From Candidatus Paraprochloron terpiosi LD05 (GTDB lineage: Bacteria > Cyanobacteriota > Cyanobacteriia > Cyanobacteriales > Prochloraceae), in NCBI GenBank assembly GCA_018141785.1, contig CP073341.1:1657422-1721421 (forward strand): a stretch of 64,000 nt of DNA, read 5' to 3'. Positions 52,679 through 60,984 of the stretch are shown one piece after another. Position 1 is the stretch's first letter. Each line of letters begins with the position of its first letter. The position numbers and the translations under genes are program-made. Under the pieces are notes generated by a model. The model saw only the letters and a program-made list of their open reading frames with translations. It did no database searches and was not told the DNA's origin.

Positions 52679-55564
52679 ATGACAGATACCAATCTTAAAA
52701 TTAAGAGTTTTATTGAGTATACACGAAAATTGAAAGGGGACGAAAAAGGAGAAGCTCAAGTATTTTGCGAGCGCCTCTTTCAAGCCTTCAATCATGCTGG
52801 TTACAAAGAAGCAGGAGCAGAACTAGAATATCGAGTCAAGACGAAGGGACAATCCACTAAATTTGCTGATTTACTCTGGGGAAACCGGTTGCTGCTGGAG
52901 ATGAAAAAGCGTGGGGAAAAGTTAGAGAAACACTACCAACAGGTGTTTGAATATTGGCTGGAGTTGGTTCCCCAGCGTCCTAAATATGTGATTCTTTGCA
53001 ACTTTGATGAGTTCTGGATTTATGACTTCAATAGTCAACTGCGAGAACCAGTGGATAAAGTAAAACTAGAAGACTTACCACAACGTTGCACAGCTTTAAA
53101 TTTTCTTTTTCCCGAGGAGCGCAAACCCCAATTTCAGAACGATTTGGTGAATGTTACTCGCAAAGCAGCAGATAATGTAGCTCAAGTCTTTAACTCTTTG
53201 ATAGCAAAAGGTGAGGATGCTAAAATTGCTCAAAGGTTCATTCTTCAGTGTGTTGTTGCCTTATTTGCAGAAGATATTGACCTTTTGCCCCCTGGGCTAT
53301 TTACTCAACTGCTAGATGATTGTAGGGTAAAGGCAAGTTCCTATGATTTAATCGGTGGACTATTCCGACAAATGGGCAACCTTCGCCCTGCTCCCCCAGA
53401 CAGCCGTTATGGAGATGTACCTTATTTTAACGGTGGTTTGTTTTCAATCATTGAATCAATTTCTCTAACTCAAGGAGAAATTAAACTTCTCCTGTCAGCG
53501 GCTTCAGAGAAATGGTCAAAAGTAGAACCTGCTATTTTTGGGACGTTATTTCAGTCTAGTATGGGCAAAAAAGAACGTCATGCTTTGGGAGCGCACTATA
53601 CTAGCGAGGCGGATATTCAGAAAGTGGTGTTGCCCACTATTGTCATACCTTGGCAAAAGCGAATTGAAGCTGCTAAGACTTTGAAAGATTTGCATGCTCT
53701 ACGGAAAGAGTTAATTAGCTTCAAAGTGCTTGATCCAGCTTGTGGTAGTGGCAATTTTCTCTATGTGGCTTATCGGGAACTGAAACGATTAGAAGCTAAA
53801 CTCCTGGCCAAAATTCAGCAAAATTTTAGCAGCAAAGTTGCCGATCCCATCGGTACCCTGTCTATGTTGAAAACTACCCAATTTTACGGTTTAGACATCA
53901 AACCCTTTGCAGTGGAACTAGCAAAAGTTACCCTAATGCTGGCGAAAAAGCTGGCACTAGATGAAGAAAACCCGTTGCTCAACAGCGTCCAAATGAACCT
54001 GCCATTGGAACTGGAGCCAGCTTTGCCTTTGGATAATTTGGACAGGAATATCCGCTGTGAGGATGCTTTATTTTGTGATTGGGATTCAGTAGACGCTATT
54101 ATCGGCAATCCTCCTTACCAAAGTAAAAATAAGATGCAGCAGGAATATGGGGCTGCCTATGTAAGACGGGTGCGAGGAAAATACCCTGAAGTCCCGGGAA
54201 GAGCTGATTACTGCGTTTACTGGTTCCGACGCACTCACGATGAACTGAAACCGGAAGCAAGAGCTGGTTTGGTGGGTACCAATACTATCCGTCAGAACTA
54301 TTCCCGTGAAGGAGGTTTGGATTATATCCTCCACAACGGCGGCACCATTACTGAAGCTGTGTCTACTCAAGTTTGGTCAGGGGAAGCAGCAGTTCATGTC
54401 TCTATTGTGAATTGGACTAAGGGTAAACAAACAGGGAGAAAGAAACTTTATACTCAAGTGGGAGATGCTAAAGATAGCCCTTGGGAAGTGGTGGAATTAG
54501 AGGAAATTAATTCTGCTCTGTCACCTGAGTTTGATGTCACACAAGCAAAAAAACTAATTGTTAATGCTGGCTCCGGGACTTGCTATCAGGGTCAAACTCA
54601 TGGTCATAAAGGATTTCTACTGACTCCTGATGAAGCGGCTGTTATGATTGAACAATGTCAAAGCAATGTGGAGGTTATTTTCTCCTACTTAACTGGGGAT
54701 GACTTGCTTTCTAGAAATGCTCCCCAAAGATATATCATTGATTTTCATCCTCTTGATGTCCTGAAAGCTAGTAAATATACTGAACTATTCACCAGAATAA
54801 AGGAGCTGGTTTTGCCACATCGTGAAGCTGCTGCTGAGAAAGAAAGACAGCGCAACGAGGAAGCTTTGAAGGATAATCCAGGAGCAAAAGTAAACCGAGA
54901 TCATCAGAATTTTTTAGCCAAGTGGTGGCTGCTTTCTCGTCCACGTCCTGAGTTAATTGAAAAAATTGCCTCCCTACCTAGATATATAGTTTGCAGCCAA
55001 GTTACAAAAAGACCTATCTTTGAATTTATTCAGACTGACATTCGCCCAAATGCAGCTCTAATTGTTTTTCCCTTACCTGATGATTACTCATTTGGCATTT
55101 TGCAATCAGGTATTCATTGGGCTTGGTTTACTGCCCGTTGTTCAACCCTAAAAGGTGATTTTCGCTATACTTCTAACACCGTTTTCAATTCTTTTCCCTT
55201 CCCCCAATCTCCCACACTAGCAGAGATTCAAAAAGTTGCAGCAGCAGCGGTAAAATTGCGCCAGTTACGACGGAAGGTAATGGCAGAAAATCAGTGGAGT
55301 TTACGAGAACTATATCGCACCCTAGATTTACCTGGAGATAATCCTCTTCGTAGAGCACAGAAGGAACTAGATAATGCTGTCAGAAAAGCTTATAAGATGA
55401 AAGGGAAAGAAGATCCTCTTAAGTTTTTGTTGGCTCGTAACAAAGATGTAGCAACACGAGAAGCACAAGGTAAACCCGTTGTTGCTCCCGGTTTACCTTC
55501 TTGGGTAGAGGATATCAATGAGTTCATCACCGAAGATTGTGTTGGTTCTGGTTACAGGATGTGA
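52679..55564 (+). CDS. MmeI-like Type IIL restriction-modification enzyme (fused PD-ExK nuclease, N6-adenine methyltransferase and TRD)
   Basis: N-terminal EKGEAQVFCERLFQAF ... FADLLWGNRLLLEMKKRG (D...ExK). GAHYTSEADIQKVV. MTase motif I VLDPACGSGNFLYVA and motif IV IIGNPPYQS. A ~450-aa C-terminal region with WWLLSRPRPEL. Confidence 0.75.
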   Translation: MTDTNLKIKSFIEYTRKLKGDEKGEAQVFCERLFQAFNHAGYKEAGAELEYRVKTKGQSTKFADLLWGNRLLLEMKKRGEKLEKHYQQVFEYWLELVPQRPKYVILCNFDEFWIYDFNSQLREPVDKVKLEDLPQRCTALNFLFPEERKPQFQNDLVNVTRKAADNVAQVFNSLIAKGEDAKIAQRFILQCVVALFAEDIDLLPPGLFTQLLDDCRVKASSYDLIGGLFRQMGNLRPAPPDSRYGDVPYFNGGLFSIIESISLTQGEIKLLLSAASEKWSKVEPAIFGTLFQSSMGKKERHALGAHYTSEADIQKVVLPTIVIPWQKRIEAAKTLKDLHALRKELISFKVLDPACGSGNFLYVAYRELKRLEAKLLAKIQQNFSSKVADPIGTLSMLKTTQFYGLDIKPFAVELAKVTLMLAKKLALDEENPLLNSVQMNLPLELEPALPLDNLDRNIRCEDALFCDWDSVDAIIGNPPYQSKNKMQQEYGAAYVRRVRGKYPEVPGRADYCVYWFRRTHDELKPEARAGLVGTNTIRQNYSREGGLDYILHNGGTITEAVSTQVWSGEAAVHVSIVNWTKGKQTGRKKLYTQVGDAKDSPWEVVELEEINSALSPEFDVTQAKKLIVNAGSGTCYQGQTHGHKGFLLTPDEAAVMIEQCQSNVEVIFSYLTGDDLLSRNAPQRYIIDFHPLDVLKASKYTELFTRIKELVLPHREAAAEKERQRNEEALKDNPGAKVNRDHQNFLAKWWLLSRPRPELIEKIASLPRYIVCSQVTKRPIFEFIQTDIRPNAALIVFPLPDDYSFGILQSGIHWAWFTARCSTLKGDFRYTSNTVFNSFPFPQSPTLAEIQKVAAAAVKLRQLRRKVMAENQWSLRELYRTLDLPGDNPLRRAQKELDNAVRKAYKMKGKEDPLKFLLARNKDVATREAQGKPVVAPGLPSWVEDINEFITEDCVGSGYRM

Positions 55565-55569
55565 TATTA

Positions 55570-56022
55570 TTACTTCCTGGAAGGATAAAGTTGATGCTCG
55601 GGGTCTAGCCAAACTATATAAAAGACTTGCTCAATGAAAAATCCATGTACTCTACCATGCTTATTGGCAGAAAGAGAAAATTGATAGGGACCATCTACTA
55701 ATTGCTCTTCATTAGGAATACCAAAACTATTCTCGCTGGTATCTTTCCAATCGATGGGATGACAGCGCAATGTTTTGCTACTATTCCCCTTGAGTTCCTG
55801 TACGGATAAAGAAGATAAGTCTTTCAGTCTACTCAACAAGGCAATTAAGTACTGAATATCTCGTTGGCGGATGGAAAACTTAGGGTGCTCTTCTTGCAGG
55901 TATTTATAAGAGAAGGCAATCCCTTTTTGTAGTTGGCTTAATTCTGTAGGTTTAAGATTATCTGGCTTTCTATCAGTTGAAGTTTTCTTAAGCCGCTTCT
56001 TCCGTTTCGACACGTGCTCCAA
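55570..56022 (-). CDS. Unassigned 150-aa protein, candidate toxin partner of the upstream Panacea-domain gene
   Basis: Basic N-terminus (KRKKRLKKTSTDRKPD). C-terminus HGRVHGFFIEQVFYIVWLDPEHQLY. It overlaps the upstream gene by 35 nt. I recognise no family. Confidence 0.4.
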   Translation of the reverse strand: MEHVSKRKKRLKKTSTDRKPDNLKPTELSQLQKGIAFSYKYLQEEHPKFSIRQRDIQYLIALLSRLKDLSSLSVQELKGNSSKTLRCHPIDWKDTSENSFGIPNEEQLVDGPYQFSLSANKHGRVHGFFIEQVFYIVWLDPEHQLYPSRK

Positions 56023-56449
56023 AGTAATTCTTCATAGATTCTTTAGTGATAATCTCCTGAGAAGGCTCATCTTGGGCAAGGTTACCCCTAGCTTTAATCC
56101 AAGGATCTTCTAAATGAGTCATCCGTTCTAAATCGTAAGCATCTACTGAGAAGTAAACTTCAACAACCTCTTCTAGAAACTCTCCGACCTCTTCAGAAAA
56201 GTTGGGCTGCTTTACCTCTTCTTCGATGGGCTTCCACTGATAGTGCTTATAACGGTCATAGAGTTGTGGAATAACTGGTCCGTGAATCCACGCCTCAAAA
56301 TCTTCTTCAAAGAGTTGTTCTCCGTAGATAGCTAGGTACCACGCTTGAGCGTAGTAAACCAGCTTTTGCAGCTTGAGGTTACTAATAAAAGACCCGGTTT
56401 CGTGAGCTAGCCAGATGAAGTATTGGGCGATGTCGTGACAGGTAAGCAT
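55988..56449 (-). CDS. Panacea (DUF4065/SocA-like) antitoxin-domain protein
   Basis: IAQYFIWLAHETGSFISNLKLQKLVYYAQAWYLAIYGEQLFEEDFEAWIHGPVIPQLYDRY matches the DUF4065 signature (KLQKL-YY-Q ... AW-GPV). Confidence 0.7.
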   Translation of the reverse strand: MLTCHDIAQYFIWLAHETGSFISNLKLQKLVYYAQAWYLAIYGEQLFEEDFEAWIHGPVIPQLYDRYKHYQWKPIEEEVKQPNFSEEVGEFLEEVVEVYFSVDAYDLERMTHLEDPWIKARGNLAQDEPSQEIITKESMKNYFGARVETEEAA

Positions 56450-56630
56450 CTTGTAAACCTCTTTCCATCTTGAATACCACTATTTTACCTCAAATCTGCA
56501 CATTCTCTACAACTTCCTCTCTCTGCGTCCTCTGCGCCTCTGCGGTTAAATAAAAACAATACCCTCGTTGGTGCATTACGAGGGGGCAAAACCTGCTGGG
56601 CGCACAACCTGCGCCCCTAGGAATTAAATC

Positions 56631-57773
56631 TTAATGGTGATGATGGTGGTGAGAATGAGAATGATGATGATGGCCATTACTCCCATTTAGCACTTGACCA
56701 TTCACCGTCACCCCTTCTGAGGATAATAATGCTTCAATTTGGGGATTTGCCCATGCTGCTGCCATTTGGAGAAACTCAAGGCGATCGTTAACACAAGGCA
56801 TCCTGAGGAATTTCACCTGGGAATTGCGATGCTGCAAGTGATGAATGATATGATCCACGTCTAGTAGGGTTTCGTGATTTTCCGTGGCAAAACCAATGGG
56901 CATCATTACTATAGCAGTGGCTCCTAAATCCATGACATTTTTGGCTGCTAACTCTACATTGGGTTGGGTCCATTCAATCAGGGGGGTATCGTGATTCAGC
57001 CAGCCAATGGAAATTAAGGGATATTTATAAATTAGTTCTTCCCGGACTAATTCGTACAGTGCTTGACTTTCCTCAATCCCGGAAGTAAATCCTTTCGCTT
57101 TGTGGGGACAACCGTGGTTCATTAGCACAATGCCAATTTGGGATGGTAAATGGGTTTTCGCTAAATCTGTGGCTATTTTCTCCTCTACCATTTTCGCCAG
57201 CAATTTAATATAAGCTGGTTCCTTGTAAAAGGAGGGAATATAACGAGTACCTTGGAGCCAATGTTCTTCCCCATCATTTAATTTACTCAGAGCGTTATTT
57301 ACTTGCTCTACAGCAATACCGCTGGTGAAGATGGAATCTACCACTAACAGGGGATAGATTAAAATTTTATCATATCCCTGTTCTTTAATTTCTGCTAGCA
57401 CTTGTTCCGGGAGAAAAGGAGCGCAAAAGTTAAAGGCTTTGAAAACTTTAACCCTTTCCCCCCATTGATACTGCAATTCTTTTTCAATCCCCGCCCGTTG
57501 AGCTTCAAATATTTTATTGTGGGGGGAGATAAAATTGCCGTGCTGGTGACTCCACTCGTGGAGGTCAAACACAGCTAGGAGTTTGGCTAGGGGTGGATAG
57601 ATCCAAGTAGGTACTGGGGCAAATTTAGCTGTGAGGAGATTCAATGCTTGTTCGTTGTAGTTAGCAAAGTCTTCGTAGCTTTCTACTTCCCCGTATCCCA
57701 TTAACAAAACCGCTACGGTATCTGTCTTAGCTGTTTGGGATAGTTGTGTTGTTTTTTCTGAGGTAGCAACCAT
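56631..57773 (-). CDS. Ferrochelatase-family (class II chelatase) paralog with natural poly-His C-terminus
   Basis: VAVLLMGYGEVESYEDF and MPIGFATENHETLLDVD resemble the HemH N-terminal and H-E-T-L motifs. There is no CAB-type TM tail. It ends GSNGHHHHSHSHHHHHH*. Confidence 0.6.
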   Translation of the reverse strand: MVATSEKTTQLSQTAKTDTVAVLLMGYGEVESYEDFANYNEQALNLLTAKFAPVPTWIYPPLAKLLAVFDLHEWSHQHGNFISPHNKIFEAQRAGIEKELQYQWGERVKVFKAFNFCAPFLPEQVLAEIKEQGYDKILIYPLLVVDSIFTSGIAVEQVNNALSKLNDGEEHWLQGTRYIPSFYKEPAYIKLLAKMVEEKIATDLAKTHLPSQIGIVLMNHGCPHKAKGFTSGIEESQALYELVREELIYKYPLISIGWLNHDTPLIEWTQPNVELAAKNVMDLGATAIVMMPIGFATENHETLLDVDHIIHHLQHRNSQVKFLRMPCVNDRLEFLQMAAAWANPQIEALLSSEGVTVNGQVLNGSNGHHHHSHSHHHHHH

Positions 57774-60366: not shown

Positions 60367-60984
60367 TCAATTATCTGAACGCCAGGTAAAAATAATTTCC
60401 TCGTCAGCCTGCCTAAATTCAATATTGAATTGGTCAAATACCACCTCTCTGCCCAAAATTATTTCTTCACATTCATCTGTTTGCACCCAAGCCACTGGAA
60501 CAGTCAGGGTATGGGAATCTAATGTGATTTCTATATTTCTTAAGAGGTAATTAATACTTCCTCCTATTCCTTCAGCTTTGCTTGTAACTTCCCCAGGAGC
60601 TTGACTATAACCCAAGTCAATACCCAATTGTTTGGTTATTAAACTAAAATCAGCCCCGGAATCAACTAGCATTTTAACCTGAAGAGGAGAAGATTGATTA
60701 AATTTGAGACTAACATCGTATTTAGGTTGCCACTCGTGATACTTGACCGTTTTTAACCTAATTGTCCTAAATTTAATCGGCTCGCAAAACTCATTCTCAA
60801 AGATGCGATCGATGATATATGCCGATGGATCTAGGTGAATACTTTCCCTTAATTGCCGATATTGGCGATTGTGGGCTATAATCCCATCTTTAGAAAAAGC
60901 AATCCACTCCCCCCGATATTTTTTTAATTCTTTTTTATTATCTGAATACCATTCATTTGGTGTTTGGTATAGTTTACTCATCAA
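60367..60984 (-). CDS. DUF5678-like N-terminal domain fused to retropepsin-like aspartyl protease
   Basis: N-terminal KKYRGEWIAFSKDGIIAH. C-terminal MLVDSGADFSLIT (the D-S/T-G-A active-site motif) and IILGREVV. Confidence 0.6.
   Translation of the reverse strand: MMSKLYQTPNEWYSDNKKELKKYRGEWIAFSKDGIIAHNRQYRQLRESIHLDPSAYIIDRIFENEFCEPIKFRTIRLKTVKYHEWQPKYDVSLKFNQSSPLQVKMLVDSGADFSLITKQLGIDLGYSQAPGEVTSKAEGIGGSINYLLRNIEITLDSHTLTVPVAWVQTDECEEIILGREVVFDQFNIEFRQADEEIIFTWRSDN

Follow-up and report, generated by a model that had tools for sequence, protein, structure and literature searches.

A PanA-linked gene cassette of Candidatus Paraprochloron terpiosi LD05, a likely member of cluster T1 with a predicted RelE/HigB-fold partner

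Two overlapping genes, panA and panT, lie on the minus strand of the window (the 64,000-nt stretch of the Candidatus Paraprochloron terpiosi LD05 genome analyzed here) and form a conserved two-gene cassette, which very likely belongs to cluster T1 of the PanAT systems as judged by profile and pairwise sequence comparison. On balance, we favor a reading of this T1-class cassette in which the partner encoded by panT is a RelE/HigB-fold mRNA endonuclease that is held by direct binding of PanA. The first-pass annotation had presented the genes as a candidate new PanA-toxin pair; this novelty does not hold, given that panT matches by profile the T1 member of phage Emek, and that T1 has already been labeled “mRNase” and tested in part. 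The cassette most likely adds no new kind of system, and is a further member of a cluster that was predicted in 2022.

The positions of the two genes and of the features around them are collected in Table 1. Both reading frames had been reported before and are present as described. The longest panT reading frame opens with TTG and encodes the 150 aa originally assigned to it, with the 35-nt overlap that was described; this overlap applies to the TTG start alone, and the gene is better read as encoding 147 aa from a downstream GTG. The GTG was chosen by two independent gene calls (P0001 and L084, with a product identical to the window sequence), the N-termini of homologues (MSKK or VSKK) fall at the matching position, and a GGAG motif precedes it by 3 nt. 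The shorter, 26-nt overlap between panA and panT is likely because it follows from this start. Overlaps of approximately 17 to 62 nt occur in the called homologous pairs, and the layout of overlap and GGAG probably reflects translational coupling.

Table 1. Positions of the panA-panT cassette and neighboring features in the window.
Feature	Position	Strand	Description
MmeI-type (IIL/IIG) restriction-modification gene	52679-55564		Full-length, 961 aa
panT, longest reading frame	55570-56022	-	TTG start, 150 aa
panT, preferred reading	55570-56013	-	GTG start at 56013, 147 aa; from gene calls and homologue N-termini
Overlap of panA 3' end and panT 5' end	55988-56013	-	26 nt, read from the sequence
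GGAG motif	56017-56020		3 nt upstream of the panT GTG
panA	55988-56449	-	ATG start, 153 aa; standalone Panacea (DUF4065) protein, presumed antitoxin
Sigma-70-like promoter candidate, weak	56482-56509	-	TAGAGA-16-TAAAAT, ~30 nt upstream of panA
GC-rich hairpins and heptamer run	56520-56625	-	Between the chelatase stop and panA
Ferrochelatase/CbiX-family gene	56631-57773	-	Histidine-rich C-terminal tail
Retropepsin-like reading frame	60367-60984	-	205 aa

The panA product carries the DUF4065/SocA signature that had been read from its translation, in which the quoted motifs are found. The Pfam model PF13274 (SocA_Panacea) matches residues 27-117 with an E-value of 9.4e-23 and 81.7 bits (gathering cut-off 25.7), and Pfam places no extra N-terminal or other domain beside it; phrog_1281 also matches, at an E-value of 5e-51. 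The copy in the sister genome is 99% identical, with a dN/dS of 0.04. The same domain is present in the antitoxin of SocAB, a type VI toxin-antitoxin system of Caulobacter crescentus. In that system, the toxin, SocB (cluster T10), is unrelated, and SocA is its adaptor to ClpXP; with the SocA equivalog model (NF047745, cut-off 190 bits), the window PanA reaches 70.9 bits.

Upstream of panA, the promoter candidate is not significant, since three matches turned up in the scanned region where chance alone would give 2.4. A terminator scan of the region found nothing above chance. The interval between the chelatase stop and panA contains two GC-rich hairpins, one of them ggggcgcaggttgtgcgccc and the other ccctcgtaatgcaccaacgaggg with a T-run after it, on which the terminator scan made no call, and a short run of GCAGAGG-like heptamers (cgcagaggcgcagaggacgcagagagagg).

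Homologues of panT are numerous, and they occur next to panA. A word-seeded search returned 364 clusters at 90% identity, nearly all of them cyanobacterial “hypothetical proteins,” and the overall count ranges from 364 to 584 such clusters when a second search, seeded from a Nostocales member, is included. An exhaustive profile search recovered 1,104 family representatives (50% identity) at E ≤ 1e-3, 569 of them at E ≤ 1e-10. The recurrent adjacency to DUF4065 genes that had been named as a check is found: a PanA gene stands directly upstream on the same strand in 75 of the 80 genome loci with a panT homologue, and a contig end truncates three of the other five. The module of PanA plus partner, as first described, is thus genuine and recurs across loci, which include cyanobacteria, an Acidobacteriota MAG, Mucilaginibacter, and Paenibacillus, where panT is seemingly interrupted. 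In Paenibacillus sp. TAB 01 (L075 4001-4417), the homologue is listed as an 88-aa reading frame from an internal ATG, and tblastn nonetheless aligns panT residues 18-146; this copy may be an interrupted pseudogene.

The surroundings of the cassette are not conserved. Flanking reading frames are singletons in 39 of 57 cases upstream and 36 of 57 downstream, the Pfam content of the neighbors differs from genome to genome, and the cassette moves independently of its flanks. A search of 72,556 plasmids gave one weak match, so panAT is essentially chromosomal in that collection. Purifying selection acts on both genes, with a median dN/dS over 370 locus pairs of 0.12 for panT and 0.16 for panA. Between the window and the sister genome, the panT value is 0.70, from approximately 15 substitutions at non-conserved positions; relaxed selection was rejected as a reading of so few changes, and the estimate from 370 pairs was preferred. 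From the conserved pair, the variable flanks and the purifying selection, it follows that panAT is an autonomous, selected two-gene cassette. The operational definition of PanAT systems is that the genes are at most 100 nt apart, occur in at least two species, and lie outside a longer conserved operon (Kurata et al., 2022; PMC8832971), and here the genes overlap by 26 nt, are kept as a pair in the 75 loci, and have unconserved flanks. The homologue clusters, the conserved synteny and the selection together place panAT far beyond chance. Hundreds of panT homologues under purifying selection exclude a spurious downstream reading frame, a reading that we group with a reversal of roles, in which PanA is harmful and the 147-aa protein counteracts it; taken together, these are extremely improbable.

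The genes beside the cassette in the window were correctly described at the outset, both the thiL and chelatase flanks (from the reading frame list and Pfam) and the Type IIL restriction-modification neighbor, which is a full-length MmeI-type (IIL/IIG) enzyme whose gene converges on panT, with the two ends 5 nt apart. The view of this region as a defense islet is weak, given that no MmeI-like gene lies within 4 kb in any of the 80 related loci and that the flanks are mostly unique. For the same reason, the restriction-modification neighbor is lineage-specific, and an association between it and panAT was rejected. The sister genome (ENA ERZ22157276) has the same panAT/MmeI arrangement as the window; its MmeI-type gene is called as two genes of 667 aa and 268 aa (L087 6453-9339), which looks like a frameshift or pseudogene, and the adjacent panAT is intact. 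The GC content around panAT is only slightly lower. In one cyanobacterial genome (L097 3468-4634), the neighbor of the cassette is a pPIWI_RE-type RNase H gene and the 6.4-kb stretch ends with a resolvase gene, a defense or mobile-element context unlike that of the window. Farther upstream of panA in the window, the ferrochelatase/CbiX-family protein has a histidine-rich C-terminal tail (GHHHHSHSHHHHHH), which suggests a metal-binding tail, and the motif LVDSGADFSLI in the 205-aa reading frame is retropepsin-like; the corresponding protein of the sister genome carries the annotation Asp_protease_2.

Cluster T1 derives from a scan of 20,209 genomes for neighbors of DUF4065 genes, which yielded 88 putative toxin clusters (Kurata et al., 2022; PMC8832971). 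T1 is the first-numbered PanT cluster of that study, heads its Dataset S1, and is among the largest of the survey. Its members come from Chloroflexi, Mollicutes, Actinobacteria, Firmicutes, Bacteroidetes, Proteobacteria, phages, and several cyanobacteria (Scytonema, Cylindrospermum, Chroococcidiopsis, Anabaena cylindrica, Calothrix, and Oscillatoria), with Emek, E. coli MOD1 and Spiroplasma among its entries, and in the rows covered here the antitoxin is listed first, with small gaps or overlaps (PMC8832971). The window genes share this organization: the standalone PanA comes first and is followed directly, at a small overlap, by a hypothetical protein of approximately 140-160 aa. The tested T1 members are labeled “mRNase” in SI Table S1 (PMC8832971).

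The assignment of panT to T1 runs through the Salmonella phage Emek. An HMM of the panT family, built from 146 divergent relatives, matches the Emek partner (YP_006560566.1) at 36.2 bits, that of phage E212 at 40.2 bits, and that of Pseudomonas phage CF60a at 30.1 bits. Comparison of the panT family with YP_006560566.1 by hhalign gives a probability of 92.4% and an E-value of 5e-7, and pairwise BLASTP an E-value of 6e-6; by all three methods, panT is homologous to this T1 member. Direct tblastn of panT against phages found only a cyanophage remnant, and the relatives in enterobacterial phages were reached with the HMM. None of the listed cyanobacterial T1 accessions (among them WP_015208861.1, WP_017741687.1, WP_015217522.1, and WP_015178107.1) or assemblies was found among the panT homologues by cluster look-ups, the Nostocales-seeded homologue search, or contig look-ups, and the very likely membership in T1 is thus linked through Emek and not through those accessions.

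A further relationship concerns the MAG6440/MAG6450 pair of Mycoplasma agalactiae. The NCBIfam model NF046006 (“MAG6450 family”) is matched by 127 of 128 panT-family members at E ≤ 0.01, and the window panT itself scores 28.9 bits against a cut-off of 40, over its C-terminal 27 residues only. By sequence, the panT family is thus related to the MAG6450 family, below the curated cut-off. MAG6450 adjoins MAG6440, a “prophage protein ps3,” and the ps3 label is also found on phage genes that match PanA; this link fits the Mollicute entries in T1.

The first-pass annotation could place panT in no toxin family, and by sequence none claims it. Pfam and PADLOC assign no family to the window panT, a PDB profile search found nothing, and the RelE-like Pfam models match none of the 128 family members, even at E ≤ 10. 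Comparison by hhalign of the panT family with a 30-sequence HigB alignment (probability 0.8%, E-value 0.067) and with a single HigB sequence (identical to 4mct_B) was not significant. Neither sequence nor profile comparison thus placed panT in the RelE/ParE superfamily (HigB-like).

An AlphaFold model of panT, built on a 128-sequence alignment, has a mean pLDDT of 91.6 and comprises a basic N-terminal tail of approximately 30 residues, predicted at low confidence, and an alpha/beta core that resembles RelE/HigB. The elements follow the order beta-alpha-alpha-beta-(helix)-beta-beta-beta: a strand at residues 33-35, helices at 53-67 and 71-76, a strand at 84-86, a short helix, and strands at 109-113, 121-127, and 130-137. 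In this model, the order is that expected for the RelE/HigB fold, extended by the basic tail and by an insertion that separates strands two and three, and it agrees with the initial hunch of a RelE/ParE-type ending. Among the top 18 Foldseek matches in the PDB, 17 are RelE-superfamily toxins (HigB, YafQ, HP0892/0894-type, and archaeal RelE), led by Proteus vulgaris HigB 4px8 (probability 0.84, E-value 0.08, 20% identity), and a first, lower-confidence model gave the same list. The structural check that had been proposed thus placed RelE/HigB-like proteins on top, although no PDB match reached E ≤ 0.001 with either model. A search of viral structures (BFVD) with the model returned heterogeneous, unrelated matches with best E-values of 0.6-1, within approximately tenfold of the best PDB match.

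The C-terminal block that had been described as conserved-looking is real. Across the 146 divergent relatives, R86, H88, G123, R124, G127, F134, W138, D140, H143, and L145 are each present in at least 85%, and H126 and Y146 in approximately 80%; H88, R124, and H143 are kept in 132-140 of the 146. Among known families, the HigB/RelE ribosome-dependent mRNA endonucleases (Pfam PF05015 and its relatives, for example P. vulgaris HigB, PDB 4MCT and 4PX8) are close in predicted structure. Two separate local hhalign alignments, neither of them significant, place H88 on HigB H54 and R124 on HigB R73, and gapless extension of the second sets H143 on HigB H92. H54, R73, and H92 are invariant in the HigB alignment; H54 and H92 are catalytic in HigB, and PDB entries for the delta-H92 and Y91A variants of HigB are consistent with a catalytic C-terminal histidine. 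R86, H88, R124, H126, D140, and H143 may have catalytic roles in panT. The fold matches and the register of His, Arg and His are the reasons for which a HigB-like mRNA endonuclease is favored, and on these model-based grounds, panT is predicted to be one.

Within this resemblance, panT differs from the HigB/RelE mRNA endonucleases in several respects. The two agree in the order of predicted secondary-structure elements and in the best structural matches, whereas significant similarity by sequence or profile is absent; relative to HigB, panT is longer by approximately 55 residues, which include the basic tail and the inter-strand insertion. In addition, panT is paired with a Panacea protein instead of a HigA-type HTH antitoxin, and its antitoxin gene comes first, unlike in higBA, where the toxin gene is first. 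ParE, which poisons gyrase and has no RNase activity, also has the RelE fold, and a few of its structures are found far down the Foldseek list of the first model (ranks 24 and 49). That panT is a ParE-like gyrase poison is nevertheless very unlikely: HigB, YafQ, and RelE, which lead the structural matches, belong to the RNase branch, and the conserved Arg/His set, including the C-terminal histidine that falls in register with HigB H92, is typical of that branch.

In the mechanism that we propose, the panT product would be an endoribonuclease of RelE/HigB fold with mRNA as its substrate, which it would probably cleave on the ribosome, and the panA product would bind it directly and hold it inactive in the manner of a type II antitoxin. 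Direct binding is proposed by analogy, because the window PanA is a bare Panacea domain, and standalone Panacea domains have been found by mutagenesis to neutralize toxins directly (Ernits et al.; PMC10440598). In one such case, the contacts involve the unstructured N-terminus and first short helix of the toxin (PMC10440598), and PanA-PanT complexes have been pulled down (PMC8832971). Under this mechanism, panT would be toxic and would be neutralized by direct binding, and any role in phage defense would likewise be putative.

The published results for T1 members bear on whether the partner is a free-standing toxin. When tested in E. coli, the T1 members of phage Emek and of E. coli MOD1 showed no toxicity, and that of Clostridium cadaveris (WP_074844970.1) was toxic and was not neutralized by its own PanA (SI Table S1; PMC8832971). 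With two of three tested members non-toxic and the third not rescued, the cassette could instead be a conserved PanA-linked module in which the partner is inactive, has a non-toxic role, or acts conditionally, for example as a phage-triggered effector with Panacea as the sensor. A sensory role for Panacea has been proposed by Ernits et al. (PMC10440598). We regard this alternative as rather unlikely, in part because the phage proteins differ from the window branch at the positions of interest. When aligned to the panT family model, the partners of Emek, E212, and CF60a all keep F37, S38, G127, F134, W138, D140, and Y146, and all lack R86, Q114, N120, R124, H126, and H143 (H143 is replaced by F); H88 is also missing in Emek and E212. 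In contrast, R86, H88, Q114, N120, R124, H126, and H143 are kept in the branch of the window panT, and the Mucilaginibacter relative keeps the same polar set except for H126, which is I. The Emek sub-branch thus lacks R86, H88, R124, H126, and H143, and the negative result for Emek may for this reason not transfer to the cyanobacterial branch; the missing Arg and His residues, near-invariant in that branch, are a possible explanation for the absence of toxicity. The near-invariance of the polar residues in more than 140 divergent relatives also points to catalysis.

Natural disruptions of the cassette provide a second line of evidence on the same question. In three assemblies (L100, L101, and L102, positions 1-140), panA is identical to that of L099 (2562-3017) only from approximately codon 44. 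Upstream of codon ~43 in these assemblies is IS607-type (MerR-like HTH recombinase) or IS605 OrfB-type sequence, at which the contig ends, and panT is intact and 100% identical to that of L099, which makes it a natural “orphan” partner. An intact panT beside an IS-disrupted panA is in keeping with a conditional or non-toxic partner and argues against strong constitutive toxicity of panT, although a truncated PanA (residues 44-151) might still be made. This leaves two readings, a panT that does no constitutive harm or a truncated PanA that remains functional.

Cyanophages carry close relatives of PanA with a truncated partner, which is also in keeping with a conditional or non-toxic role. Intact PanA is encoded by Cylindrospermopsis raciborskii virus CrV-01T (MH636380.1; L083 2501-3466) and phage Cr-LKS4 (OQ625504.1; L082 1822-3389), and both proteins share 64-65% identity with that of the window. 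The reading frame that follows PanA in CrV-01T is the N-terminus of PanT (49.6 bits, HMM positions 3-64), which ends approximately 65 residues in at a phage CRISPR repeat array, so that it lacks the catalytic half; CRISPR arrays flank the PanA gene of Cr-LKS4 on both sides. The cyanophage PanA could be an antitoxin kept as an anti-defense gene, or the remnant of a decayed toxin-antitoxin pair.

These same observations bear on the reversal of roles mentioned above. PanA itself was toxic in E. coli in three of the PanAT pairs tested by Kurata et al. (PMC8832971), and the annotation “GepA-like toxin” is attached to PanA homologues in some phage records. Yet the phages keep PanA alone, without its partner, and it is panA, not panT, that is found disrupted, the reverse of what would be expected if PanA were toxic.

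Returning to the favored reading, in which panT is a HigB-like RNase held by PanA, a more far-reaching version can be formulated: the cyanobacterial T1 branch would be a catalytically competent, HigB-like RNase with a full Arg/His site, the phage-borne T1 members tested so far would be derivatives that have lost catalysis, panAT would act in phage-triggered abortive infection in cyanobacteria, and the cyanophages would counter it with a close PanA copy that lacks a working toxin. We offer this combination as speculation and consider it improbable as a whole. The cluster still has no pair that has passed a test of both toxicity and rescue, and the comparison made here gives a testable reason for the published negatives. 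Because the non-toxic Emek protein lacks Arg and His residues that the cyanobacterial branch keeps almost without exception, a pair from cyanobacteria, such as that of the window, would be a better test case for T1 partners as HigB-like RNases, and would also test how a bare Panacea domain restrains such a partner.
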